A stretch of 36,007 nucleotides of DNA from a virus. The stretch lies in the UHGV virus genome UHGV-0135626; one strand, given 5' to 3'. A program made the translations under genes and the position numbers. The notes under the pieces are model-generated. The model had not been told where the DNA came from, searched no databases, and saw nothing but the letters and a program-made list of their open reading frames with translations. Shown piece after piece: positions 3,380 through 35,272 of this stretch (the first letter of the stretch is position 1; each line of letters opens with the position of its first letter).

Positions 3380-4047
3380 TGACCAAAAAGTTTGAAATCG
3401 TATATCGCGACCCGGCAGATCTTATTCCCTATGAGATGAATGCCAAAAAGCATGATGAACAGCAGATCAGAGATCTGGCCGCAGCCATTAAAAAGCGCGG
3501 ATTTGACCAGCCAATTACGGTCGATAAGAACGACGTAATTATTACTGGTCATGGCCGCCGTGAGGCTGCAATTTTTGCTGGACTTGAGCGCGTACCGGTT
3601 ATTGTTCGCGATGATCTCAGTGATGACGAGGTTCGTGCGAAGCGCCTTGAAGATAACCGACTTGCCAGCATTGATTACGATGCAATTAAGCTACAGAAAG
3701 AGCTTGAGTCGCTTGTTCTGGACGATATCGAGGTTTTCGGCTTTGAAGAGCGTGAGTTGAATGTTCTCGTTGGCAGTATGACAGAAGAAATGGACACCGA
3801 CTCGCTAGTTATCGATCTTGGCGAAGAAACTAAACGACAGAAGGATGAACACACCGAGATCAGTCGTGAAGTTGCAGCGGAAGAAGTACGTGTTGTCGAC
3901 GTATTGGGCTTTAAAACGCTTCCTGCTGGCTCTGCCATTGTTGTTGGTGATTTGCTTGCCCACATGGAAGAAATGACGGGAGAAAGCGGGGTAGACGCAT
4001 TTGTGGCATATGCGGAGAAGATCTCTTCCGGGGAGATGGCTGCATGA
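3379..4047 (+). CDS. ParB/Srx-like nuclease-domain protein, copy 2
   Basis: Start taken at ATG 3379 (MTKKFEIV), overlapping the upstream stop; the track ORF begins at 3346. ParB box IITGHGRREAAIFAG; acidic C-terminal region. Confidence 0.75.
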   Translation: MTKKFEIVYRDPADLIPYEMNAKKHDEQQIRDLAAAIKKRGFDQPITVDKNDVIITGHGRREAAIFAGLERVPVIVRDDLSDDEVRAKRLEDNRLASIDYDAIKLQKELESLVLDDIEVFGFEERELNVLVGSMTEEMDTDSLVIDLGEETKRQKDEHTEISREVAAEEVRVVDVLGFKTLPAGSAIVVGDLLAHMEEMTGESGVDAFVAYAEKISSGEMAA

Positions 4048-4709
4048 GCAAATACATCATCAACGTATCGTTTCAGACACGCGTAAATAAAACCACGCGC
4101 ACGTTGGAAATCGCTGAGTCGTTCGGGCTTGGTCTGGACGAAAAAGAGTGGACGCTTTACGACAATCTGGAGCTGGAAGTGAAGCAGGGCGATGTGGTGT
4201 ACATCACCGGCCAATCCGGTTCCGGCAAATCCGTTGTGCTGCGCGAGTTGCAACGACAGATGAAGGATGAAGGGTTGTCTGTAGCCTCCATCGATGATTT
4301 TACCTTCGATAATGAGGTTAACGTCATCGATCAGTTGGGCAAAACGACCAGTGATGCGCTTGGGTTGTTATCTATGGCTGGTCTGAACGATGCATATCTG
4401 TTTGTTCGCAAGCCTTCTGAAATGTCAGACGGTCAGAAATATCGTCTCAAGATTGCCAAACTGATTGAGTCAGGCGCTAAAGTGTGGGCTGCTGACGAGT
4501 TCGGTGCTGTTTTAGACCGTGTAACCGCTCAGGTTGTGGCATCTAACCTCCAGCGTGTCGCTCGAAAGGTTGGTGCGACGGTAATGGTGGCGACGACTCA
4601 CGAAGACCTGAAGAACGCGCTGCGCCCGGATATGCAGATCACCAAGCACTACAAAGAACGCGTGAAGGTGGAATATCACAATGGCAGTCATGATGAGGTC
4701 CATTCATGA
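4044..4709 (+). CDS. Stand-alone ABC-type ATPase, nucleotide-binding domain only
   Basis: 221 aa. Walker A GQSGSGKS, signature-like SDGQKYRL, Walker B VWAADEF, H-loop TTHED. SD GGGGAG 8 nt upstream; ATGA overlap with both neighbours. No membrane domain or partner. Confidence 0.8.
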   Translation: MSKYIINVSFQTRVNKTTRTLEIAESFGLGLDEKEWTLYDNLELEVKQGDVVYITGQSGSGKSVVLRELQRQMKDEGLSVASIDDFTFDNEVNVIDQLGKTTSDALGLLSMAGLNDAYLFVRKPSEMSDGQKYRLKIAKLIESGAKVWAADEFGAVLDRVTAQVVASNLQRVARKVGATVMVATTHEDLKNALRPDMQITKHYKERVKVEYHNGSHDEVHS

Positions 4710-5596
4710 CGGACATCATCATTAAACGCTACCGCCCTGAAGAGTTTCCGCGTCATCTGGACTTTCTGGAGCGAATGACTGTCACAAAGGGAACTGTAGA
4801 GGACTGGCACGCTCTTAAGTCGCTTCACTACAAAACAGACGGCAAACCTTTCGCGCCAACTTACTATCGCTGCGAACTTGATGACCGTCTGGTGGGCGTC
4901 GTGGTTATGGCTTACCCGAAACTACTGTTGGCACCTCGCCACCGCATGTTTCCTAAGTTGAAACCAACCACTAATACCACCGTGGCTAACCAGTACTGGG
5001 GTCGGTACGTGAATAACAACTTTGCGGTGATCAGTCGCTCAGTTGTGGATACTCAGTATCGTGGCGTAGGCGTCTCTTATCGAATGATTAACCTGGTTAG
5101 CAGGATGCATGACCGGCCAATCATTGAGATCCAGTCCTCGATGAGCAAATACAATCCCTTCGCCATGAAAGCAGGGTTTAAGTTCATCCGCCCTGAGCGA
5201 CCGAAGAGCTATGAAAGTGCACTGCGTGTATTCCAGCGCCATTTCCGTTCCGACCCGGGTGATAACGAGGCGATCGTCAAAGAGTTGTTCGCAATGAGCG
5301 AGTCTCGTCGTCGCCGTGCACTGCGTGATCTGGTGGCGGACTACCACAAGAACAGTTCCCTGGCAAAAGCTGGGCGGAATCGTGGCACGACGATTCAGGA
5401 CATTGCCGACAGTCTGGTGGACGAGGCCAGCATTGTGAAGCTGCTCAAGGACATTCACAACCTGAGCTTTACGTCTCCGTTGTATGGTGTGTACCGAAAC
5501 CCTGACTTTGGCCGTCGACTGCCTGACACGCTGCCACTGCTGGCATTCGACAAACAACCTTTGGATAAACCGTTAGAAATTGCTTTACCGGCATAA
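4706..5596 (+). CDS. GNAT-like acyltransferase-domain protein with a C-terminal extension of about 120 aa
   Basis: 296 aa. GNAT acyl-CoA motif QYRGVGVSYRMI and downstream NPFAMKAGFKF. SD GAGG 7 nt upstream; ATGA overlap with the ABC ATPase stop. Confidence 0.6.
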   Translation: MTDIIIKRYRPEEFPRHLDFLERMTVTKGTVEDWHALKSLHYKTDGKPFAPTYYRCELDDRLVGVVVMAYPKLLLAPRHRMFPKLKPTTNTTVANQYWGRYVNNNFAVISRSVVDTQYRGVGVSYRMINLVSRMHDRPIIEIQSSMSKYNPFAMKAGFKFIRPERPKSYESALRVFQRHFRSDPGDNEAIVKELFAMSESRRRRALRDLVADYHKNSSLAKAGRNRGTTIQDIADSLVDEASIVKLLKDIHNLSFTSPLYGVYRNPDFGRRLPDTLPLLAFDKQPLDKPLEIALPA

Positions 5597-6701: not shown

Positions 6702-7957
6702 TGGCAATCCCGTCCTCGCTCAGTCTTGTGCAACTGCATTCTGGACAGATGAAAGTCTTCCAGTCTCCGCATCGATTTAAAGTTGTTTGTGCTGGTCGAC
6801 GCTGGGGAAAATCCCGGTTGTCGATCTCCACTATTATTCGTGCGGCGGCAAAGGAAAAAAAGCAAAGGGTCTGGTATGTCGCTCCTACTTACCAGATGGC
6901 TCGCCAGATTTTGTGGGACGATCTACAGGAAGTTCTGCCTCGTAAGTGGGTTAGGAAAAAGAACGACACCACGATGACAATCGTGTTGAAGAACGGTTCG
7001 GAGATCGCCCTCAAAGGTGCTGATAAGCCTGACACTCTGCGCGGCGTAGCGTTGCATTTTGTAGTGCTTGATGAATTTCAGGATATGAAGGCTGACACCT
7101 GGTACAAGGTGTTACGACCTACTCTTTCATCGACACGCGGCGGTGCACTGATCATTGGTACGCCAAAAGGCTTCTCGGAATTTCACAAACTGTGGACTAT
7201 AGGCCAGAACGTAGAGCTGCAAAGAAAGGGACAGTGGAAGAGCTGGCAGTTTGTAACTGCCGATTCTCCGTTTGTACCTACGGCGGAAATTGAAGCTGCT
7301 AAGAACGATATGGACCCGAAATCGTTCGCTCAGGAGTACCTGGCGAGCTTTGAGAACATGTCCGGGCGCGTTTACTACCCGTTCGATCGTAACGTGCATG
7401 TAAAACCGCTTCAGTTCAACCCTCGGTTGCCTATATGGGTAGGGCAGGACTTCAACATTGACCCGATGTCTTCAGTAATTTTGCAACCTCAGCCAAATGG
7501 TGAGCTATGGGCAATTGATGAATTGGTGCTCTTTTCCTCTAACACGGCAGAGGTTTGTGATGAGCTTGAGAGACGCTTCTGGCGCTGGAAATCACAGATA
7601 ACGGTATTTCCAGATCCGGCAGGTGCTTATCGCCAACATGCTCGCGGGGAGTCTGACGTCGACATATTCAAAGAGAAGGGATTCTTACGTGTCGATTATT
7701 CGAAAAAGCACCCGCCAATTGCGGATCGTGTTAATGCTGTTAACCGAATGCTGATGACCGCATCTGGAGATATCCGGCTGTATATCGATCCGAAGTGCAA
7801 GCATTTGATTGATTCACTGGAAAAAGTCATCTACAAGCCTGGAACACGAGATATGGATAAGACAGGTGGCATTGAGCATAGTGCAGACGCATTGGGCTAT
7901 CCAGTACATCGTAGGTATCCAGTCAAAAACCGTGTTATTCTTGGTGGTTCTCGATAG
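6701..7957 (+). CDS. terL: Terminase large subunit (ATPase and nuclease)
   Basis: 418 aa. Walker A-like VVCAGRRWGKS, Walker B HFVVLDEFQDM, acidic residues in the C-terminal half; sits directly upstream of the portal gene. Confidence 0.8.
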   Translation: MAIPSSLSLVQLHSGQMKVFQSPHRFKVVCAGRRWGKSRLSISTIIRAAAKEKKQRVWYVAPTYQMARQILWDDLQEVLPRKWVRKKNDTTMTIVLKNGSEIALKGADKPDTLRGVALHFVVLDEFQDMKADTWYKVLRPTLSSTRGGALIIGTPKGFSEFHKLWTIGQNVELQRKGQWKSWQFVTADSPFVPTAEIEAAKNDMDPKSFAQEYLASFENMSGRVYYPFDRNVHVKPLQFNPRLPIWVGQDFNIDPMSSVILQPQPNGELWAIDELVLFSSNTAEVCDELERRFWRWKSQITVFPDPAGAYRQHARGESDVDIFKEKGFLRVDYSKKHPPIADRVNAVNRMLMTASGDIRLYIDPKCKHLIDSLEKVIYKPGTRDMDKTGGIEHSADALGYPVHRRYPVKNRVILGGSR

Positions 7958-7983
7958 GTAAGTAATTATCTAAGGTTATTCAA

Positions 7984-11368: not shown

Positions 11369-11400
11369 TCAGTGCAGTAGATAAGTAATTATCTATGTTA

Positions 11401-14947: not shown

Positions 14948-14956
14948 CTCAATTGG

Positions 14957-14970
14957 TAAGTATATACTTA
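14957..14970. promoter_or_regulatory. Perfect 14-bp palindrome TAAGTATATACTTA upstream of the major tail gene
   Basis: Exact self-complementary 14-mer in the 74-bp gap before the major tail protein start; same TAAGTA half-site as the other intergenic palindromes. Confidence 0.4.
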
Positions 14971-27766: not shown

Positions 27767-27859
27767 TTGTGGAAAAAAATAATCATTTCTGTAAAAATAG
27801 GTAGGTACTAACTTAATGGTGGGCATGGAACGCCCACCATATCTAGGAGCAAAGGATAA

Positions 27860-30205
27860 ATGTGGTACAGGGAAGGTACAATAAATCTCACTAAAGGAAA
27901 TAAAACTGTAGTGGGAACAGGCACAGCCTGGGGAGTGACGGCGAACGGCGTCCTTCCAGGTATGATATTGATTGGCCCCGATAATAAGTTATATGAAATA
28001 AAATCAATCGAGAGTGACACTTCGTTAACTCTTGTTGAAGCCTACGGTGGTAGCACCCAAACAAATGTCCCGTGCAGAATAATTACGACCTATGAAGGTG
28101 ATTTAACCCAATTTAGTGCTCGTTTTACTGCGCTTATGTCTCGCATGTCAGCCGATTCAAAAATGATGCGTAGTTGGTTGACTGCCGTGGATGAAATAAC
28201 AATTGAGCGTGAAGATGGCACGGAATTAACCGTAAAATCCCTTACGCAGATCGTTAATGAGCACAATGAGAACCTAGAATGGTATAAAGAAAATACTCCC
28301 ATAATTAACACCGCTGCACAAAAAGCTAAAGAGGCGGCAGCGAGCGCAACAGCGGCCAAAAAATCAGAAACTAACTCAAAAGCGAGTGAGACAGCTTCAA
28401 AGACTAGCGAAACTAATGCGAAAAATAGCGAGGTAGCTGCAAAATCGAGTCAGAGTGCTGCCGCAAACTCCGCTACCGCAGCAAAAAACAGCCAGGATGC
28501 AGCAGCCGAAAGCGAGAGTGCTGCAGCTGGTTCTGCGACTTCAGCAGCTGGATCAGCAACTGCTGCGGCTAACAGCCAGAAAGCTGCGAAGACGAGTGAA
28601 ACTAACGCAAAGTCCAGCCAGACGGCAGCAAAGACCAGCGAAACGAATGCCAAAGCCAGCGAAACTGCGGCGAAAAGCAGTCAGGATGCAGCAGCCGAAA
28701 GCGAGAGTGCTGCAGCCGGTTCTGCAACAGCGGCAGCTAATAGCCAAAAAGCTGCAAAAACCAGTGAAACTAACGCAAAGGCGAGCGAAACAAAAGCAGC
28801 AGCCAGCGAGACAGAAGCAACGTCAGCCGCAACAAGAGCAGAGAATGCAGCCAGGATTGCAGAAGATGCCGCTGATCCTGCTTCTGTCCCTCCGCTTCCT
28901 GATATCTGGCTACCCTTGAATGATTCTCTGGAAGCGATAACAGGGTATGCGCCGGGGTATAAAACAATAACCATCGGCAGCGATGAAATCACTGTGCCAG
29001 TTAATGGCATATGCCAATTTAGCCGGGCTTCATCTGCAACGTATATTGATAAGTCCGGGCATATTACCGTGGCAGGGAATAACGTTCCTCGTTTTGAAAA
29101 ATATGGTTTGCTGATAGAGAATCAGCGAACAAACATGTTCGTAAATAGTTTTAATCCTGATGCGTGGAATAAAAGCGGTGGTATATCTGTAACATCATCA
29201 ACAGATGAATTTGAGTTTAAATATGGACGTTTCACAGTAGGAAGCGACATAGCAGGAACGACAACAGGGAGAAATATATGCACAGTTGCTGGTAATAGAG
29301 GCATAGATGTGACTGGCGATGATCAGTACAGTAAAGGTCCGTATGTTACCGCGTCGTTCAGGGTAAGAAGTGATCTCAATGTTCGCGCACGTATCCGTTT
29401 TGAACGGTATAACTCGGAAGGATACACTTTCCTTTGTGACGCCTATTTGTCATTACAGACCCATGAACTACAAATTACGGGTGATAATGCCCAGCTATTA
29501 ACAGCAAACTTTGAAATCGATCCAGGTAGTGGATGGATATATTTTCAGGCAACCCTGAAATGTCTGCCAGAATGGGGAATGGTTGGTACGCAGTTGCAAA
29601 TTGCAGCCGACAGAGCTGTGGGGTCTTTTGCAACAGGTGACTGGATAGAAGTAACCACCCCGCAATTTGAGTATGGTGCTTGTGCAACTTCCTTTATCAT
29701 AACGACAACAGAGCCAGCTACTCGTGCATCAGATTTATGTAAATTTCCGCTGATGAAAAATATGTATACCATGCCTTTTACGTTCATGGTGGAAGTCCAT
29801 AAAAACTGGTTTATTTCTCATAATGCTGCACCGCGAGTAATTGATACAGAAAACCATCAGTCAGGTGCTCCATTTATCATGGGATTTGGCTCTTCTGGAA
29901 CTATCAGTCAGGACGGTTATCCCTATTGTGATATAGGCGGGGCTAACCGACGTGTATATGAGTCATGCGGAGTAAGAGATCTCGTTATGGGATTCAGGGT
30001 TAAGGCTGACGGCATGACATGCTCATTTGCAAATAAGCATATAAGCACAGAAACAAAAACAGTATGGAAATATATTCGTGAAGCTGCTGTGATTCGTATC
30101 GGGGGACAAACGACGACAGGATTACGACACCTTAATGGACATATAAAAAACCTCCGTTTCTGGAACAGAGCATTGTCAGATACGCAGCTTAAGGAATACG
30201 TATAA
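27860..30205 (+). CDS. Tail fibre protein with Ala/Ser/Glu/Thr-rich repeat shaft
   Basis: 781 aa: conserved N-terminus, low-complexity repeat region, then a Gly/Tyr/Trp-rich C-terminal domain with lower GC, as expected for a receptor-binding domain. Confidence 0.75.
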   Translation: MWYREGTINLTKGNKTVVGTGTAWGVTANGVLPGMILIGPDNKLYEIKSIESDTSLTLVEAYGGSTQTNVPCRIITTYEGDLTQFSARFTALMSRMSADSKMMRSWLTAVDEITIEREDGTELTVKSLTQIVNEHNENLEWYKENTPIINTAAQKAKEAAASATAAKKSETNSKASETASKTSETNAKNSEVAAKSSQSAAANSATAAKNSQDAAAESESAAAGSATSAAGSATAAANSQKAAKTSETNAKSSQTAAKTSETNAKASETAAKSSQDAAAESESAAAGSATAAANSQKAAKTSETNAKASETKAAASETEATSAATRAENAARIAEDAADPASVPPLPDIWLPLNDSLEAITGYAPGYKTITIGSDEITVPVNGICQFSRASSATYIDKSGHITVAGNNVPRFEKYGLLIENQRTNMFVNSFNPDAWNKSGGISVTSSTDEFEFKYGRFTVGSDIAGTTTGRNICTVAGNRGIDVTGDDQYSKGPYVTASFRVRSDLNVRARIRFERYNSEGYTFLCDAYLSLQTHELQITGDNAQLLTANFEIDPGSGWIYFQATLKCLPEWGMVGTQLQIAADRAVGSFATGDWIEVTTPQFEYGACATSFIITTTEPATRASDLCKFPLMKNMYTMPFTFMVEVHKNWFISHNAAPRVIDTENHQSGAPFIMGFGSSGTISQDGYPYCDIGGANRRVYESCGVRDLVMGFRVKADGMTCSFANKHISTETKTVWKYIREAAVIRIGGQTTTGLRHLNGHIKNLRFWNRALSDTQLKEYV
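28330..28870 (+). repeat. Imperfect tandem DNA repeats encoding the fibre shaft
   Basis: Near-identical segments recur about 190 bp apart, e.g. CAGGATGCAGCAGCCGAAAGCGAGAGTGCTGCAGC at 28492 and 28682, and AGTGAAACTAACGCAAAG at about 28588 and 28759. Confidence 0.7.
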
Positions 30206-30474
30206 TGCGGGATATAACATTACGATTCGATAACAGAGAACAGTTTAACGCAATTGTATATGACAGTGGCCTGTTCAGTCTTGAAGAAGAAAATGGGGTT
30301 CTTGTTGATGTTATTGGCTGCATTATTGATTACGAGGAGCCAGAAAACGAAAGATGTACAGGCATTGATCGCGGTGGTTTTTTCGTAAACATGAGGATTG
30401 TTGATAGCAGTAAAAACATATCTTCTTTAATGCCTTTCATTACGACAGATCAGCATGTAAGGACATGGGCTTAA
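30205..30474 (+). CDS. Hypothetical protein in the fibre cassette (possible fibre assembly or adaptor protein)
   Basis: 89-aa ORF with TAATG overlap with the fibre gene stop and SD AAGGAA. AT-rich; no motif recognised. Confidence 0.45.
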   Translation: MRDITLRFDNREQFNAIVYDSGLFSLEEENGVLVDVIGCIIDYEEPENERCTGIDRGGFFVNMRIVDSSKNISSLMPFITTDQHVRTWA

Positions 30475-30486
30475 TGGAGTAAGACA

Positions 30487-31527
30487 ATGGTTACAAAAAC
30501 AGTAATTCCTGATGACATCAAAACGCTAAAATCGGATGTTAGTAAATTAAAAACCGATCAAGGAAACTACGCAACAAAATCTTATGTAGACAATAAAACA
30601 ACATGGAATGGTTATTGCAATTTAATCTATGATCAAAAAACATTGCCAACAACTGGAACTATATTCAGCGGTAAGCTGCATTTGTCAAATAAGACTGGTG
30701 AAACGGAAAACGCTTATAGTGACATATATACCAGAAAAAATATTGATGGTACTAAAGATACAATGACGAGGATCGTCACACATAACGGGACAAAAGGTAT
30801 CTTTTGGGACTTTAGTGATCTTAACGGAGGAACTTTAATTTTTCCAGGCAGTGGTGGTTATCTTAAGATGGGGAACTGCCTCATGTCGTATGGTGTGCGG
30901 GGAAGTAACGCGCTTATTAAGTTTGATTACACCGACACATTACAGATCAAATATGCCAATCATGGGTCAACCATGACATTAAACACACAGGGAACCGCTT
31001 ATGCTGGTGTTACTGCTCAATTGTGGGGCAACTCCAGTCGTCCAGTTGTTTATGAAATTAGGGATGATGGCGGGCTTTTTTTGTTTTATGCACAAAGGAA
31101 CCCAGATAAAACCTATCAGCTTGAGATAAACGGGCCATGCAAGGCTACATCATTCGACCAGGTGTCGGACAGAGATCTTAAAGAAAACATTCAGGTTATT
31201 GATAATGCCACTGAGCGCATCAGATTAATGAATGGGTATACTTACCGTCTCAAGTCTAATGGTATGCCTTATGCTGGCGTTATTGCGCAAGAGGCACTTA
31301 ATGCAATCCCTGAATCAGTTGGTAGCACAATAAAGTACAAGAGCGGGGACAATGGGTCTGATGGAGAAGAGGGAGAAAGATACTATACCGTCGATTACTC
31401 AGGCGTAACGGGTTTGCTTGTTCAGGTAGCCAGAGAGTCAGACGACAGGATAACAGCACTGGAAGAAGAAAACGCAGAATTAAGACAAAGATTATCTGCA
31501 ATTGAGGCGGCGCTTGCGTCTAAATAA
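30487..31527 (+). CDS. Tail fibre protein with C-terminal intramolecular chaperone (peptidase S74-type) domain
   Basis: 346 aa, SD GGAG 7 nt upstream. Residues 227-234 SDRDLKEN match the autoproteolysis site of endosialidase/T5-type fibre chaperone domains; a terminal helical segment (EEENAELRQRLSAIEAALASK) follows. Confidence 0.75.
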   Translation: MVTKTVIPDDIKTLKSDVSKLKTDQGNYATKSYVDNKTTWNGYCNLIYDQKTLPTTGTIFSGKLHLSNKTGETENAYSDIYTRKNIDGTKDTMTRIVTHNGTKGIFWDFSDLNGGTLIFPGSGGYLKMGNCLMSYGVRGSNALIKFDYTDTLQIKYANHGSTMTLNTQGTAYAGVTAQLWGNSSRPVVYEIRDDGGLFLFYAQRNPDKTYQLEINGPCKATSFDQVSDRDLKENIQVIDNATERIRLMNGYTYRLKSNGMPYAGVIAQEALNAIPESVGSTIKYKSGDNGSDGEEGERYYTVDYSGVTGLLVQVARESDDRITALEEENAELRQRLSAIEAALASK

Positions 31528-31533
31528 TATCAA

Positions 31534-31556
31534 GGGGCCGAGCGCCCCGTTTTATT
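31534..31556 (+). terminator. Rho-independent terminator after the fibre gene
   Basis: GGGGC-cgagc-GCCCC followed by GTTTTATT. Confidence 0.65.
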
Positions 31557-31569
31557 GGGTAGGATGAAA

Positions 31570-31854
31570 ATGGATATAACACCTTTCCTTCATGCGCTTT
31601 GTGCTGTGGCTGCGCAGCTACTGATTGGTCTTTTTACCGGGAACTGGGTTTACGGGGCGATAGCCGGTTGTACGTTCTTCATTGCGCGTGAACACACCCA
31701 GGCAGAATATCGCTGGATTGAAATGTTCGGGCATGGCAAGCGTATGAATATGCCGTGGTGGGGCGGTTTTGATCCGCGCGCTTGGGATGTAGCAAGCCTG
31801 ATGGATTTTGCGATTCCACTTTTAGCGTGCACATTATTATATATTTTTATTTAA
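31570..31854 (+). CDS. Small membrane protein with two predicted transmembrane helices (holin, moron or exclusion protein)
   Basis: About 94 aa from ATG 31570 (SD AGGA 5 nt upstream); hydrophobic segments AVAAQLLIGLFTGNWVYGAIAGCTFFIA and ASLMDFAIPLLACTLLYIFI. Lies between a terminator and an AT-rich promoter region. Confidence 0.45.
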   Translation: MDITPFLHALCAVAAQLLIGLFTGNWVYGAIAGCTFFIAREHTQAEYRWIEMFGHGKRMNMPWWGGFDPRAWDVASLMDFAIPLLACTLLYIFI

Positions 31855-31946
31855 TATAAGATTAACTGAGATATAGCTTACGCAAAGAAGGTAATAAATA
31901 TAAAGAGAGATGTTCTGAGGTAATTTATTGTTGGTGTTTAAGGTTA

Positions 31947-31976
31947 TTTACAGATAGGTAAGTGCATACCTATATA
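31947..31976 (+). promoter_or_regulatory. Candidate sigma70-type promoter with an embedded operator palindrome
   Basis: -35-like TTTACA (31947-31952), 18-bp spacer, -10-like TATATA (31971-31976). The spacer holds the perfect inverted repeat ATAGGTA-agtgca-TACCTAT (31954-31973). Confidence 0.45.
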
Positions 31977-32035
31977 AAAAAGATAAAATGTGATATAAAT
32001 CCGCCATCCCGATTTGACTTTTCATGGAGGAAAAT

Positions 32036-32359
32036 ATGTCGAACGAGATGGCGGGCGTAACAACAGAGCAAGTTGAGCGCATTGCCGCGATCGTTGCTCG
32101 GGAGGTTGTCGGCAAATTAGGTAAAGAGCTACGTGAAGAAATTGGCCAGGAGGTCAACGATCAGCTGAAAACCTACTTTGGTGATATGACCCCGGCGCAA
32201 CATAGTATTCAACACTCCAACCTGGACAAACTCCTTAACCGGTTAGATTCCATCTCCAGTGGGTTCTTTGGCGGCATTGTTTCTAAAATAACGTCGTTCA
32301 TTATTACCGCACTGCTTTTGGGGTTAGCCGCGTATGGCGTGAAAAATGGACTGCAATAA
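32036..32359 (+). CDS. Small protein with one C-terminal transmembrane helix (holin or antiholin candidate)
   Basis: Start at ATG 32036 with SD GGAGG 5 nt upstream (track ORF starts 32024). C-terminal hydrophobic segment ITSFIITALLLGLAAYGV; directly upstream of the putative endolysin. Confidence 0.45.
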   Translation: MSNEMAGVTTEQVERIAAIVAREVVGKLGKELREEIGQEVNDQLKTYFGDMTPAQHSIQHSNLDKLLNRLDSISSGFFGGIVSKITSFIITALLLGLAAYGVKNGLQ

Positions 32360-32372
32360 CAGGAGATCAAGG

Positions 32373-33065
32373 ATGAAGACTCCGAGAGGCATTCGTAACA
32401 ATAACCCCGGTAATCTTGATAAAGGATCGCCGTGGCAAGGTCTGGTTGCTAATCCAGACGAACCCCGCTTTTGCACGTTTAAAGACCCTGTTTGGGGGAT
32501 TCGTGCGCTGGCGGTGACTCTAATTACCTACCACGACAAACGTCGCGCAAAAGACGGCTCAAGTATCGATACCATTCGTGAAGTTATTGAACGCTGGGCA
32601 CCGCCGAACGAAAATAACACTGACGCCTATATTAATGAGGTGTCCAAAGCAGTTGGTGTAACCGCAGACATGATTATCGATCTGCATGATTACGACATCC
32701 TTCGACCTTTAGTTGAGGCAATCATTCGCCACGAGAATGGCCGAGGCCCGCTAAAAACGCTGAACACCTGGTATGCGGCAGAAGTTATTGAGGAAGGTCT
32801 GCGTCGAGCTGGCGTCGTTAAGCCGGTGAAAACGGTGAAGGCTGTTCCTGTAACGAAAGAAACCGCAGGCGCAACTGTTACAGCAGGTATTGGTCTGGCG
32901 CAGCTTGCCGATGTTATGCCGCAGATTTCCGCTGCTATGGATAAAGCACAAGGTCATATCTCTAGCGGGGATACAGTACGCATCATCTTCGGTATTGCCA
33001 CTATTGTTGTGGCAGGATTCATTGCCTGGTCGCAGGTAAGAAAACACCAGAAAGGGATGGTCTAA
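32373..33065 (+). CDS. Putative endolysin / cell-wall hydrolase with C-terminal transmembrane anchor
   Basis: Start at ATG 32373 (MKTPRGIRNNNPGNL) with SD AGGAG 7 nt upstream. Function inferred from position directly before Rz/Rz1; C-terminal hydrophobic segment IIFGIATIVVAGFIAW. No catalytic motif confidently recognised. Confidence 0.4.
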   Translation: MKTPRGIRNNNPGNLDKGSPWQGLVANPDEPRFCTFKDPVWGIRALAVTLITYHDKRRAKDGSSIDTIREVIERWAPPNENNTDAYINEVSKAVGVTADMIIDLHDYDILRPLVEAIIRHENGRGPLKTLNTWYAAEVIEEGLRRAGVVKPVKTVKAVPVTKETAGATVTAGIGLAQLADVMPQISAAMDKAQGHISSGDTVRIIFGIATIVVAGFIAWSQVRKHQKGMV

Positions 33066-33066
33066 T

Positions 33067-33318
33067 ATGCTAGGCAGCCTGATGACAAAGCTAAAAGTTG
33101 CTTTGATTATGCTGGCTGCCGTTCTTTTCGTTCTTGTCGGCGCTTACACGATGGGCGGAAATGCGGCGCGACGAGCAATGGAAGAGAAGGCAAAACAGGA
33201 AGACAGAAAACGACTTCAAAACACAGTGAAAGTGGTGAATGAGACGAGCAGTAAAATACGTCAGAAAGATGCTTCTGCCGTTCATCGTGAGTTGTATGAT
33301 AAGTGGGTGCGTCATTAA
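33067..33318 (+). CDS. Rz: Inner-membrane spanin (Rz-like)
   Basis: 83 aa with N-terminal transmembrane segment (LKVALIMLAAVLFVLVGAY) and a charged helical periplasmic part; a lipoprotein gene is embedded in the +1 frame. Confidence 0.65.
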   Translation: MLGSLMTKLKVALIMLAAVLFVLVGAYTMGGNAARRAMEEKAKQEDRKRLQNTVKVVNETSSKIRQKDASAVHRELYDKWVRH

Positions 33319-33454
33319 ACCACAAACAGCCAGCGTGTTGTTCTGCGATGGGGCTGAGCCTATCTATATCAGCAATAATGATGTAATGACTGAAGAAACC
33401 GAACGCCAAATCCTTTTTCACAATACGATGGGAGAGAGGGTTTGTGGTTGGTGA
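33239..33454 (+). CDS. Rz1: Outer-membrane lipoprotein spanin (Rz1-like), overlapping Rz in another frame
   Basis: 71-aa ORF starting inside the Rz gene and running past its stop. Lipoprotein signal with lipobox ISGC (MRRAVKYVRKMLLPFIVSCMISG|C); short mature peptide. Confidence 0.6.
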   Translation: MRRAVKYVRKMLLPFIVSCMISGCVIKPQTASVLFCDGAEPIYISNNDVMTEETERQILFHNTMGERVCGW

Positions 33455-33461
33455 TGTCGAA

Positions 33462-33483
33462 GTTCCCCTCAAATGAGGGGAAC
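33462..33483. terminator. Stem-loop between convergent genes; candidate bidirectional terminator
   Basis: GTTCCCCTC-aaat-GAGGGGAAC, a 9-bp stem between the Rz1 stop (33454) and the minus-strand toxin stop (33487). Confidence 0.55.
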
Positions 33484-33486
33484 ACA

Positions 33487-34008
33487 TTATTCTTCGAACA
33501 ATTTTTCGATAGATTTTGTAGGATAGAACAAAGAACGCTCGTTGTTACCAACCAGCTGGATAAAGCCTAAACTTTTATAAAACGCCTTGGCTTTGTCATT
33601 TAACGCCTCAACGAAAAGTCCATGAATGCCTACAGCAAGAGATGCATTGTACACAACGCGCATTGCATGTGTTACAAGCATTGAGCCAAATCCTTGACCT
33701 TGAAGGGACTTGTCCAAAGCCAGCCTACCCAAAGTAACACTTGGAACATTCCGATAAGGAACCTTCTTTTGTTTGCTTCTTGAAGGTAAGGACTCCTTTT
33801 CAAAACAACTACCTGACAAAGTGTAATATCCTAACACTTTTGGCCTTTCTTCTTGAGTGCAAAGCACATAAGCACGAAGAATTTTTCCCTCATGCTGCCT
33901 TTTTAAGTGGTTGGCTAAAAAGGCGTTTAGTGACTCTTCGCCGCAATCAAAACCGTTTAGATCATAATCTTTCTCTCCAGAGAAAATCTCTATCGTTGTA
34001 TTGCTCAC
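33487..34008 (-). CDS. GNAT-family acetyltransferase toxin of a type II toxin-antitoxin pair (TacT/AtaT/KacT-like)
   Basis: 173 aa; GNAT motifs (QGQGFGSMLVTHAM acyl-CoA loop, AKAFYKSLGF). Immediately downstream of, and co-oriented with, a DUF1778-type antitoxin gene. Confidence 0.8.
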   Translation of the reverse strand: MSNTTIEIFSGEKDYDLNGFDCGEESLNAFLANHLKRQHEGKILRAYVLCTQEERPKVLGYYTLSGSCFEKESLPSRSKQKKVPYRNVPSVTLGRLALDKSLQGQGFGSMLVTHAMRVVYNASLAVGIHGLFVEALNDKAKAFYKSLGFIQLVGNNERSLFYPTKSIEKLFEE

Positions 34009-34015
34009 GAGTAAA

Positions 34016-34285
34016 CTACTCCATGCTTTTCAGACGATCAGCAGCTCGTTTCAGCTTGTCGTTCGGTGCCGGAGGATTGCTTATAGCGTCCATAACCAGA
34101 TTCCAGGATTCTTCATTCAGAACTAGTCTACGGTGTTGCTCTATAACTTTCACGGCACGTTCAGATGCACTGCTAACCATAAACTGAGTAATGCTCTGGT
34201 TAGACATTGCGGCAGCTTCCTCGATGATGCTTTTATCGTCATCGGTTAATCTCAAATCGATGCGCTGCTTTTTTAGTGCTGACAT
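34016..34285 (-). CDS. DUF1778-type (RHH) antitoxin, TacA/AtaR-like
   Basis: Start at ATG 34285 (MSALKKQRIDLRLTDDDKSIIEEAA), preceded by a perfect SD AGGAGG with 5-nt spacer, giving 89 aa. The track ORF extends to a TTG at 34324. Confidence 0.8.
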   Translation of the reverse strand: MSALKKQRIDLRLTDDDKSIIEEAAAMSNQSITQFMVSSASERAVKVIEQHRRLVLNEESWNLVMDAISNPPAPNDKLKRAADRLKSME

Positions 34286-34324
34286 GTATTCCTCCTGATG
34301 GCCGTGATGTAGGAAGGCCATCAA

Positions 34325-34603: not shown

Positions 34604-35272
34604 ATGACCAAGATCTTTGTGGTTGGCGGCACAAAGGGCGGGCCTGGCAAATCCACCGTTGCCCAGCAAATTGCCGTTTGCCTGAAAGTCAAAAAGAAGA
34701 AGAAGGTTTATATTACCGATATAGATATTCAGCGCACGACAACGAGCTGGTGTGAAGACCGTCGACAGAACGAAGACCTTGAGCTGATTCCTTTTGCATA
34801 CGTTCAGGATGACATCATTAAGCACCTAAAATCGCTTCAGGGTAGAGCTGAGTTTGTAGTGGTAGATGCTGGTGGCTTCGACTCCGAAATTCAGCGACAA
34901 GCGATGCTGATGGCTGACGTTATCATTATCCCGCTGCGTCCTAAGCGTCGTGATTTGAAATCTTTACGTGACATCGATCCTATTATCGACAATGTTCGCA
35001 ATGTAAACGATAAAGTGAAGGTCCGCGCGGTCATGAACCAGTGCCCGGCTTTGCCATCACAAGTGTCTCGCATTCTGGCGGCTAAAGAGATTGTTGAGAC
35101 GTTTGGAATCGAGTCTGCGCCAGTCAATCTATATAACCGCAACGTCTATGATGATGCGGAAGAGTCTGGTCGTTCTATCTTTGAAATGACCGGTAGCGAG
35201 CGCGACAAAAAGGCGGAAGCCGAGTTTGAAGAATTTGTAGATTATCTGTTGAGTCTGGAGGAAGAAGAATAA
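34604..35272 (+). CDS. parA: ParA-family partition ATPase (small type Ib form)
   Basis: 222 aa with deviant Walker A GGTKGGPGKST at the N-terminus and no N-terminal HTH extension. SD AAAGGGAA; TAATG overlap with the next gene. Confidence 0.85.
   Translation: MTKIFVVGGTKGGPGKSTVAQQIAVCLKVKKKKKVYITDIDIQRTTTSWCEDRRQNEDLELIPFAYVQDDIIKHLKSLQGRAEFVVVDAGGFDSEIQRQAMLMADVIIIPLRPKRRDLKSLRDIDPIIDNVRNVNDKVKVRAVMNQCPALPSQVSRILAAKEIVETFGIESAPVNLYNRNVYDDAEESGRSIFEMTGSERDKKAEAEFEEFVDYLLSLEEEE

Follow-up and report, generated by a model that had tools for sequence, protein, structure and literature searches.

Positions 32036-33454 of the DNA analysed, the 36,007-nucleotide virus genome UHGV-0135626 (referred to here as the window), are very probably the lysis cassette of an SSU5-like phage-plasmid, a variant of the chi/Enc34 type whose endolysin belongs to the Enc34/M4Lys kind and carries its membrane anchor at the C-terminus. 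The window belongs to the SSU5-like phage-plasmids of E. coli; by megablast, its DNA is 97.5% identical to that of Cyrano, 93% to PhiR41_1 and 82% to SSU5. Four genes make up the cassette, encoding a 107-aa protein, the 230-aa endolysin and an overlapped Rz/Rz1 pair (Table 1).

The same four genes are found in the same order in SSU5 (SSU5_026-030) and Cyrano (CYRAN_22-25), with DNA 82-97.5% identical to that of the window, and in both records they are labelled holin, endolysin, Rz and Rz1. Compared with these two cassettes, the window and PhiR41_1 have an extra gene upstream that encodes a 94-aa membrane protein; in SSU5, its slot is occupied by three other accessory genes, including Cor. The cassette region was matched by 725 PLSDB plasmid records, and the gene tables of the best matches list all four lysis genes as 'hypothetical protein'. 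The open reading frames of the region are real genes and not chance openings, because they match PHROG families (E values from 7.5e-25 to 1.6e-88) and have hundreds to thousands of homologues. A scan of the five proteins of the region against Pfam and NCBIfam gave nothing above threshold. SSU5-like phage-plasmids are common in E. coli, Klebsiella, Salmonella and Enterobacter and are clinically relevant, and their annotation could be improved with the Enc34/M4Lys endolysin class confirmed as in use there.

Table 1. Features of the lysis cassette and its upstream flank, in coordinates of the window.
Feature	Position	Strand	Description
Terminator-like hairpin	31534..31548	both	G+C-rich, 5 G-C pairs, loop of 5, T-run tail GTTTTATT
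Accessory small membrane protein, 94 aa	31570..31854	+	phrog_1443, a family of unassigned function; ORF opens at 31555
18-bp palindrome	31955..31972	.	TAGGTAAGTGCATACCTA; conserved left edge of the lysis cassette; candidate regulatory site
Extended -10-like element	31991..31999	+	TGATATAAA (TGnTATAAA); 37 nt upstream of ATG 32036; candidate cassette promoter
107-aa protein, holin position	32036..32359	+	phrog_5093; hydrophilic helical N-terminal domain, one C-terminal transmembrane helix
Endolysin, 230 aa	32373..33065	+	AGGAG 7 nt upstream
Endolysin catalytic domain, residues 1-150	32373..32822	+	PHA02564 / Enc34-type all-helical glycosidase; RNNNPGN, W75, Y86, catalytic E121
Endolysin C-terminal membrane module, residues 151-230	32823..33065	+	homologous to the Enc34 transmembrane domain
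i-spanin, Rz-like, 83 aa	33067..33318	+	phrog_1026, E 7.5e-25; N-terminal transmembrane helix, then charged periplasmic domain
o-spanin, Rz1-like lipoprotein	33239..33454	+	phrog_1275, E 1.3e-24; signal peptide ends in lipobox ISGC
Terminator-like hairpin closing the cassette	33462..33483	+	9-pair stem, 6 G-C pairs

The initial annotation had taken the 230-aa protein to be a probable endolysin. Sequence comparison and modelling support this identification and place the protein in the Enc34/M4Lys class of endolysins with a C-terminal transmembrane domain. Its best PHROG match is phrog_873, 'endolysin' (E 1.6e-88). In a phmmer search of the PDB, residues 3-151 matched the Enc34 endolysin, 7q47, at E 2.6e-54, and by BLASTP residues 4-228 are 54% identical to full-length Enc34 ORF39, anchor included. 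The RNNNPGNL sequence occupies residues 8-15. The catalytic residues are kept: E121 (in IRHENG), W75 (ERWAP) and Y86 (DAY), which correspond to Glu131, Trp79 and Tyr95 of Enc34, are invariant across 29 diverse homologues. The AF2 model of the protein has a pLDDT of 85-96 over residues 30-150, and its top Foldseek match is again 7q47 (E 1.7e-14, target-normalised TM 0.80), followed by the phage E1004 core protein. The profile search and the predicted structure, which is all-helical and resembles the lysozyme alpha-lobe, therefore both identify a cell-wall hydrolase fold. The Enc34-type catalytic domain has no Pfam model. The structure and activity of the Enc34 catalytic domain have been published (PMC8943055), as has the glucosaminidase activity of M4Lys (PMC7143992). 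Muralytic activity, of the glucosaminidase kind seen in M4Lys, and transmembrane-dependent lysis would be expected of the 230-aa protein by analogy with these homologues, to which it is about 54% identical.

A hydrophobic anchor at the C-terminus of the 230-aa protein had also been proposed, and it was recovered. A hydropathy scan detected a single segment above threshold, at residues 195-223, with a Kyte-Doolittle 19-residue maximum of 2.07, and the similarity to Enc34 ORF39 extends through it to residue 228. By the same measure no N-terminal hydrophobic segment is present in the first 190 residues, which begin with MKTPRGIRNNNPGN. The membrane module consists of a conserved PVTKET linker, a weakly hydrophobic Gly/Ala/Thr-rich helix at residues ~165-190, a strong transmembrane helix at ~203-220 and the basic tail RKHQK. 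Twelve of its positions are invariant (P159, T161, E163, A167, G174, Q177, A179, P183, A188, S198, A218 and Q221), and over residues 156-199 the confidence of the AF2 model drops below 50. The net charge flanking the transmembrane helix is -1.45 before it and +2.2 after it. With a single helix and the positive-inside rule, the catalytic domain would sit outside the membrane, as the authors of M4Lys predicted for their enzyme (PMC7143992); the predictions for Siskin (PMC6498227) and Enc34 (PMC8943055) have two helices with both protein ends inside.

The initial annotation considered a C-terminal anchor unusual for an endolysin. That view does not hold, because such enzymes form a published class, described for Siskin in 2019, M4Lys in 2020 and Enc34 and LysAP in 2022, and the genes are already labelled in SSU5 and Cyrano. 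Three of these reports concern C-terminally anchored endolysins of the same family (PMC6498227, PMC7143992 and PMC8943055). M4Lys lyses E. coli only with its C-terminal transmembrane domain (PMC7143992), and Enc34 ORF39 is toxic when full-length and not when truncated (PMC8943055). The endolysin finding is therefore correct but ordinary, the enzyme type being known and annotated in close relatives. A literature search for later work on the mechanism of M4Lys or PHA02564 found nothing beyond the papers cited here.

A second endolysin was sought in the window and none was found; in SSU5 (103 kb), the annotation of the first 100 kb lists no other lysin. One candidate, the tape-measure protein with its match to phrog_1768, 'endolysin', was rejected, because by Pfam the matching stretch is a tape-measure region and has no lysin domain. 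Hence a hydrolase fold is present in the 230-aa protein and no other endolysin was found in the window, the two points on which the initial annotation had staked its proposal.

The endolysin gene is followed by the spanin genes. The o-spanin gene begins within the i-spanin gene and ends past it in a different reading frame, the arrangement of an overlapped two-component spanin. The i-spanin, in which the helix comprises residues 1-34, is weakly similar to Enc34 ORF40 and equal to it in length. The o-spanin is 43% identical to Enc34 ORF41 (E 1e-21), and that of SSU5 has been assigned to the Chi family (PMC6139136). Downstream, the closing hairpin separates Rz1 from a convergent acetyltransferase-toxin gene.

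The locus had been described as an atypical lysis region with three membrane-anchored proteins. All of the open reading frames described are present, but the first membrane protein, of 94 aa, is not a lysis gene product. Its most likely start is ATG 31570, given the AGGA 8 nt ahead of it and the MD(I/L)(T/S)P with which most homologues begin. Its hydrophobic stretches are at residues 3-41 and 73-96. In the earlier description of a two-helix membrane protein the helices were undercounted, since the AlphaFold model (pLDDT 92.9) has three; AREHTQAEYRWI and WGGFD are invariant in the family. In lambdoid phages, the gene directly follows the tail-fibre genes and lies about 20 kb from the phage's own S/R/Rz cassette, a placement after the tail fibres and far from S/R/Rz that is seen in at least 55 lambdoid phage records. 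Neither Cyrano nor SSU5 has the gene, and among plasmids its presence varies. In the window, the tail-fibre gene stops at 31527, and the hairpin that separates it from the 94-aa gene is part of a 97-99% identical block that lambdoid phages also have. Judged from these genomic settings, the 94-aa gene is part of a swapped-in lambdoid side-tail-fibre module. The earlier suggestion of a separate insertion flanked by a terminator and a promoter is thus right in that the gene is a separate accessory gene and the hairpin exists, but the gene arrived with the tail-fibre module and not as an independent insertion, and the sigma-70 scan found no promoter before the cassette, although a candidate element is conserved there. 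The 94-aa gene follows the hairpin directly, with no room for a promoter of its own.

The sigma-70 scan covered positions 31855-32023. It accepts only hexamers that end in T, and the hexamer at 31991-31999 ends in A; the candidate promoter, not reported by the scan, was recognised in a conserved alignment. In this alignment of four elements (the window, Cyrano, SSU5 and PhiR41_1), both the palindrome and the -10-like element are conserved, the latter being invariant. A palindrome pattern derived from the single site upstream of the holin-position gene had 8 matches in the window versus 0.53 expected, with 6 intergenic and upstream of + strand genes, and 11 in SSU5 versus 0.47 expected, at equivalent positions. 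A degenerate pattern was set aside, because it was built from its own matches and its statistics were circular. The palindrome recurs upstream of late genes, the lysis cassette among them, and is a candidate regulatory site.

The first gene of the cassette encodes the protein for which one C-terminal helix had been noted, and the sole hydrophobic segment of the 107-aa ORF is indeed C-terminal, at residues ~80-102, followed by a tail of 5 residues (KNGLQ). A conserved motif, FGDM..QH..QH, includes the invariant residues G49, H56 and H60 (H-x3-H). The alternative ATG at 32024 lacks a ribosome-binding site, and in PhiR41_1 it falls outside the reading frame. As a small membrane protein that has a transmembrane helix and is encoded beside an endolysin, the 107-aa protein agrees with the generic description of a holin; the holin hallmarks of a charged hydrophilic C-terminal domain and a dual-start motif were not found in it. 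The 'holin' label on its homologues in Cyrano and SSU5 rests on gene position, and no similarity to annotated holin families was detected in Pfam, NCBIfam or PHROGs. The chi-type first lysis gene ('lysis protein B', a proposed class IV holin) and phrog_5093 gave an hhalign probability of 0.2, no BLASTP alignment was obtained with Enc34 ORF38, and the phrog_5093 profile had no significant similarity by hhalign to the tail-anchored upstream protein of Alcaligenaceae. The recurrence of partner genes with a C-terminal helix in other lineages may reflect convergence.

Remote relatives of the 107-aa protein were collected by exhaustive profile search and confirmed as phrog_5093. Six gene neighbourhoods, out of 58 representatives, were examined, and in five of them the relative lies directly upstream of a Peptidase_M15_3 endolysin, an Amidase_2 endolysin, or a phrog_8226 holin and a phrog_669 endolysin. 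The relatives' cassettes also hold another small membrane protein, which in one case is the phrog_8226 holin. Because of this extra membrane protein, and because the 107-aa protein has no charged C-terminal tail, it may be a regulator and not the hole-former; it is either a holin or a lysis-timing regulator or partner. Literature searches found no experiments on phrog_5093 members and, for tail-anchored holins, nothing beyond the papers cited here. A bolder proposal, which we regard as unlikely, is that phrog_5093 constitutes an undescribed class of tail-anchored lysis proteins (N-terminus inside, one C-terminal helix, G...H-x3-H) that, together with the anchored endolysin, times a lysis without holin. 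Cassettes that open with a phrog_5093 member include at least four endolysin types unrelated to each other (Enc34-type, Peptidase_M15_3, Amidase_2 and phrog_669); if the proposal were true, SSU5-like lysis would proceed without a conventional holin, its timing set by two interacting tail-anchored proteins. The sole parts of the system that may be undescribed are the phrog_5093 family of first genes and the palindrome that recurs upstream of late genes.

The catalytic domain, with Glu121, Trp75 and Tyr86, would cut the peptidoglycan, and the C-terminal module would hold the enzyme on the inner membrane and give the catalytic domain access to the wall, as the experiments on M4Lys and Enc34 suggest. 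In the order of events that we infer, the enzyme would build up on the cytoplasmic side of the membrane, tethered there, its two ends both inside. At a critical concentration, the membrane module, acting with the 107-aa protein or timed by it, would disrupt the membrane, the enzyme domain would reach the murein, and the overlapped Rz/Rz1 pair would then break the outer membrane. In BSPM4, the first gene, which is not homologous to the 107-aa gene, is dispensable for lysis in vitro (PMC7143992).

It is possible, though less likely than not, that the 107-aa protein forms holes as a canonical holin does, but in a new topology (N-terminus inside, helix C-terminal), and that the endolysin anchor merely tethers the enzyme until triggering. 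All SSU5-like elements have the protein in the holin position, its family comes first in the cassettes of four endolysin types and its juxtamembrane motif (G49, H56, H60) is strongly conserved. However, a lone helix that leaves 5 residues as its periplasmic tail, the absence of a charged domain at the C-terminus, a gene with no usable dual-start motif and the lack of similarity to the annotated holin families already listed do not fit a holin well, and an endolysin of the M4Lys class lyses unaided (PMC7143992). That last observation favours a different reading, likewise possible but less likely than not, in which the C-terminal module of the endolysin itself makes the membrane lesion, as in a holin-endolysin fusion, and the 107-aa protein is an antiholin-like timing regulator. 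Lysis of E. coli by M4Lys on its own depends on concentration and requires neither Sec nor the upstream partner; the transmembrane domain by itself is bacteriostatic, loss of 13 C-terminal residues abolishes lysis and co-expression of the partner slightly delays it (PMC7143992). The toxicity of full-length but not truncated Enc34 ORF39 points the same way, as do the conservation of the membrane module, far above the need of a passive anchor, the SSU5-type cassette without a further small membrane protein besides the spanins, and the coexistence of phrog_5093 members with another holin candidate in relatives' cassettes. On the other hand, holin-independent lysis may be an over-expression artefact, according to the Enc34 authors (PMC8943055). 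Moreover, phrog_5093 also precedes M15 and amidase endolysins that are soluble and depend on a real holin, and in some of these cassettes the other membrane protein belongs to no known family.

The remaining readings concern the identity of the genes. That the 230-aa protein is a virion-associated, wall-degrading entry protein and not a lysis enzyme is highly improbable. The same catalytic domain does occur N-terminally in internal virion or core proteins and in tail proteins (9vvp Gp29; phrog_7182, phrog_2276 and phrog_992; podovirus internal virion proteins), the NCBI domain name is 'virion protein' and the PhiR41_1 record reads 'internal (core) protein'. The window protein, however, is a stand-alone protein of 230 aa with a transmembrane helix, encoded between the holin-slot gene and the spanins; its full-length identity of 54% is to proteins shown to lyse cells, and the searches of the window and of the first 100 kb of SSU5 yielded no alternative endolysin. 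It is scarcely more credible that the three membrane proteins, including that of 94 aa, form a single three-component lysis system. Their genes are adjacent and on the same strand, and all encode membrane proteins, but Cyrano and SSU5 have the cassette without the 94-aa gene, the lambdoid records place that gene with the tail fibres, and a conserved cassette boundary and the palindrome separate it from the 107-aa gene.

Among known systems, SAR endolysins (P1 Lyz and R21 of phage 21) are likewise membrane-tethered and have a weakly hydrophobic Gly/Ala/Thr-rich helix, and with them lysis is possible without a large-hole holin. Their SAR domain is N-terminal and Sec-exported and the enzyme ends outside the membrane, whereas the window endolysin has no N-terminal signal-anchor-release domain. 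Its export route cannot equal the SAR route, because it has no N-terminal hydrophobic segment and its anchor is C-terminal. LysAP of Acidovorax phage AP1 (PMC8879335), of ~227 aa, is likewise anchored at the C-terminus, with basic residues after the transmembrane domain, but its catalytic domain is a GH24 lysozyme unrelated in sequence to the window endolysin. LysAP alone lyses E. coli, and its transmembrane domain is needed for membrane localisation and lysis (PMC8879335); LysAP is reported to be Sec-dependent (PMC8879335) and M4Lys Sec-independent (PMC7143992).

M4Lys of Salmonella phage BSPM4 (Bai et al. 2020, PMC7143992) and the chi-like 'lysis protein A' (Siskin, PMC6498227) are of the same family and architecture as the window endolysin, which is ~55% identical to the chi-like phage homologues over 99% of its length. 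The chi-like partner protein has its helix at the N-terminus and a coiled coil at the C-terminus, whereas the window's partner has a C-terminal helix and no sequence similarity to it. Enc34 is a virulent chi-like siphovirus and the window element a temperate phage-plasmid; the gene upstream of the Enc34 endolysin is unrelated to the 107-aa gene, and two short insertions in the Enc34 enzyme are absent from that of the window. Nevertheless, Enc34 ORF39 (PDB 7q47; Cernooka et al. 2022, PMC8943055) has the fold, the Glu/Trp/Tyr residues and the membrane module in common with the window endolysin, and it is likewise encoded between a first-gene protein and an overlapped spanin pair.

Comparison of positions 31400-33500 with phage genomes by megablast matched SSU5-like phage-plasmids, with identities of 97.5% to Cyrano, 93% to PhiR41_1, 82% to SSU5 and about 78% to Klebsiella relatives. 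The Cyrano and SSU5 records label the matching genes holin, endolysin, Rz and Rz1; downstream of these cassettes come a toxin-antitoxin pair or hypothetical genes, with ParA beyond them. All five open reading frames described in the initial annotation are present in the window sequence. Their membrane features were read from hydropathy analysis, and start codons were assigned from ribosome-binding sites, the N-termini of homologues and an indel in PhiR41_1 that breaks the frame. PHROG scans of the other window ORFs returned a helicase, ParB-like proteins, terminase, portal, capsid, tail, tape measure and tail fibres; judged by these matches, the gene content outside the cassette is that of a normal SSU5-type late region.

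Coordinates of the lysis genes, the tail-fibre block and the palindromic sites (window positions unless SSU5 is named)
Feature	Position	Size	Description
First membrane protein	31570-31854	94 aa	hydrophobic residues 3-41 and 73-96; three helices in model, pLDDT 92.9
Second protein	32036-32359	107 aa	single hydrophobic segment, C-terminal
Third protein	32373-33065	230 aa	RNNNPGNL at 8-15; strong segment ~203-220, then RKHQK; no N-terminal segment
Rz	33067-33318	83 aa	helix at N-terminus
Rz1	33239-33454	71 aa	lipobox ISGC; gene overlaps Rz end
Distal tail-fibre block	27860-31854		781-aa tail protein, 89-aa ORF, 346-aa fibre (Peptidase_S74 chaperone domain), 94-aa membrane protein
Palindrome resembling TAGGTAAGTnnnTACCTA	2663-2680, 7955-7972, 11378-11395, 14953-14970, 27798-27815, 31955-31972	18 bp	intergenic
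Palindrome, SSU5 (L090)	2032, 5472, 9068, 21938, 27475, 33601, 38179, 41774, 43662		

Directly past the cassette terminator, the minus strand (33487-34324) encodes a KacT-like toxin of the GNAT acetyltransferase type (phrog_1758) with its small antitoxin, convergent to the lysis cassette; next come ParA (34604-35272) and a 119-aa partner; SSU5 differs in having unrelated hypothetical genes at the toxin-antitoxin position. Two adjoining genes at 4044-5596, flanked by the ParB-like genes and the terminase region, match the phage families phrog_293 and phrog_886 ('ABC transporter / ATP-binding subunit'). In PLSDB, 725 plasmid records matched 30400-33500 (Klebsiella 303, Escherichia 251, Enterobacter 91, Salmonella 44), and the PLSDB gene tables of the best-matching records enter all four lysis genes as 'hypothetical protein'.

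The 230-aa protein had been proposed to be an endolysin with a C-terminal anchor, and homology to the endolysin of Hafnia phage Enc34 bears this out. The Enc34 catalytic domain (7q47) was matched in the PDB by phmmer (E 2.6e-54), and BLASTP against full-length Enc34 ORF39 gave 54% identity over residues 4-228, an extent which implies that the linker and transmembrane part are homologous as well. The AF2 model was confident across the catalytic domain, and its sole significant Foldseek matches in the PDB were 7q47 chains B and A (chain B: E 1.7e-14, TM 0.80). In an alignment of 29 homologues, with identity down to 55%, W75, Y86 and E121 were invariant; their Enc34 counterparts are Trp79, Tyr95 and Glu131, the last being catalytic. 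The RNNNPGN motif is kept, with N11, P12, G13 and N14 invariant.

The possibility was considered that the 230-aa protein is not a cell-wall hydrolase and that a canonical endolysin is encoded elsewhere. However, its homology is to such a hydrolase, no other peptidoglycan hydrolase was found among the window ORFs, and SSU5_027 is the only endolysin listed in the SSU5 RefSeq annotation over the first 100 kb of 103 kb, which together indicate that the 230-aa protein is the element's endolysin. The tape-measure protein, one PHROG match of which is labelled 'endolysin', was rejected as a second lysin because Pfam assigns a tape-measure region there. Elsewhere in SSU5, distant from its lysis cassette, SSU5_101 (L091, 36898-37596) is annotated 'lysozyme inhibitor LprI family'.

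By homology, the 230-aa protein belongs to a characterised, published endolysin class and is already labelled as such in close relatives, and the view that its C-terminal anchor is unusual was not upheld. C-terminal transmembrane domains on chi-like endolysins were first noted for Siskin in 2019 (PMC6498227). For M4Lys of Salmonella phage BSPM4 (2020), peptidoglycan degradation by the catalytic domain and glucosaminidase activity were reported; the full-length protein by itself lyses E. coli, without azide-sensitive Sec or the upstream gene, but not once it lacks its transmembrane domain or final 13 residues (PMC7143992). Work on Enc34 (2022) supplied the endolysin structure and its relationship to GH73 and GH23 enzymes, and the full-length protein is toxic while a truncated form is not (PMC8943055). 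LysAP, a C-terminally anchored GH24 lysozyme unrelated to the Enc34 type, has also been published (PMC8879335).

Conservation in the 29-homologue alignment is unusually high for an anchor over residues 151-230, where the invariant positions include P159, T161, E163, A167, G174, Q177, A179, P183, A188, S198, A218 and Q221. The mean net charge around the strong helix is +2.2 on the C-terminal flank and -1.45 on the N-terminal flank; by the positive-inside rule, the charge after the helix would place the C-terminus in the cytoplasm. The side on which the enzyme domain lies then depends on residues 165-190, a weakly hydrophobic stretch rich in Gly, Ala and Thr that resembles SAR domains in composition. 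If this stretch spans the membrane, the enzyme domain would be cytoplasmic, as predicted for Siskin and Enc34; if it does not, the domain would necessarily be outside, as predicted by the M4Lys authors. The AF2 model is not confident on this point, with pLDDT below 50 over residues 156-199. This ambiguity is common to the whole family and not particular to the window locus, and the export mechanism across all Enc34/M4Lys-type endolysins is one point of remaining interest.

The first membrane protein had been considered a separate insertion. It is broadly a separate gene of accessory character and variable presence, but appears to travel with the tail-fibre module, to which it is best assigned as an accessory member. 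In lambdoid phages of about 46 kb it follows the tail-fibre genes, and DNA matching at 97-99% identity continues without a break from the 346-aa fibre gene's 3' end into it; in lambdoid phage Tritos about 20 kb separate it from the S, endolysin and Rz genes. Neither Cyrano nor SSU5 carries it, and in SSU5 Cor and two other accessory genes occupy its slot. Similarity of PLSDB plasmids to the window begins at 31569, 31936 or 31952, which indicates both variable presence of the gene and a conserved cassette edge just left of 31955. Gene order in the distal tail-fibre block is identical in Tritos (TRITO_19-22), whereas Cyrano, SSU5 and PhiR41_1 carry different fibres, suggesting a host-range module exchanged between lambdoid phage and phage-plasmid. 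The family of the 94-aa protein, phrog_1443, is widespread (448 clusters), and an invariant block, AREHTQAEYRWI, together with D4, H10, Q18, WGGFD and C89, is shared across Enterobacteria, Aeromonas and Comamonas. These residues look more like an active or binding site than a mere anchor; a fold search with the protein gave no informative match. The slot after the tail fibres is the usual place of lysogenic-conversion or exclusion genes, and the 94-aa gene occupies such a slot.

Downstream of the tail-fibre gene is a hairpin with a run of T. Upstream of the cassette, a perfect-armed palindrome, TAGGTAAGTGCATACCTA, precedes a TGnTATAAA element, and both are kept in four elements. With a pattern derived from this single site, 8 matches were obtained in the window where 0.53 would be expected; six of them are intergenic, just upstream of plus-strand genes encoding ParB-like, portal, Ig-domain, major-tail-like, tail-fibre and holin proteins. 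In SSU5 there were 11 matches against 0.47 expected, in equivalent places. The palindrome is probably a regulatory site of late operons, either an operator or a phage-specific promoter element of SSU5-like phage-plasmids. No description of it was found in the literature, and it is a further point of remaining interest.

So is the phrog_5093 family, to which the 107-aa protein of the first cassette gene belongs (three scanned representatives match it). A word-indexed search gave matches in SSU5-like elements alone: 12 phage records and 30 clusters, the majority of which have at least 64% identity to the query. With an exhaustive profile search, 58 representatives were obtained at E <= 0.001. 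Common to the members are F-G-(D/E)-M, invariant G49, an invariant H-x3-H (H56, H60), conserved D71 and a C-terminal helix. Genomic context was looked up for six remote members. In three the gene immediately precedes a Peptidase_M15_3 endolysin; in one it lies upstream of an Amidase_2 endolysin, and in another upstream of a phrog_8226 holin with a phrog_669 endolysin behind it; the sixth is on a contig too short for context. There is thus good positional evidence that phrog_5093 members are lysis proteins of one kind or another. In the M15 and amidase cassettes an additional membrane protein of 72-96 aa is encoded after the endolysin, so phrog_5093 may act in regulation instead of forming the hole. 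A shared motif, RPY(V/L)T...GP.N..I..WF.ER, marks such proteins of 72-91 aa, which have no assigned family. In the SSU5 cassette, apart from the 107-aa protein, only the endolysin's own anchor is a candidate for disrupting the membrane.

A neighbourhood survey covered 80 viral contigs encoding endolysin relatives. Many full-length relatives (206-241 aa) bear a C-terminal helix, the short ones (130-165 aa) have none, and the upstream partner is of two types, with either an N-terminal or a C-terminal helix. Compared with the Enc34 cassette, the endolysin is 54% and the o-spanin 43% identical, and the i-spanin is weakly similar and equal in length. The first genes share no similarity: in the product of the chi and Enc34 gene the helix is at the N-terminus and a coiled coil comes after it, and the SSU5 type has the opposite layout. 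The SSU5 cassette is thus a chi-type cassette with a non-orthologous first gene.
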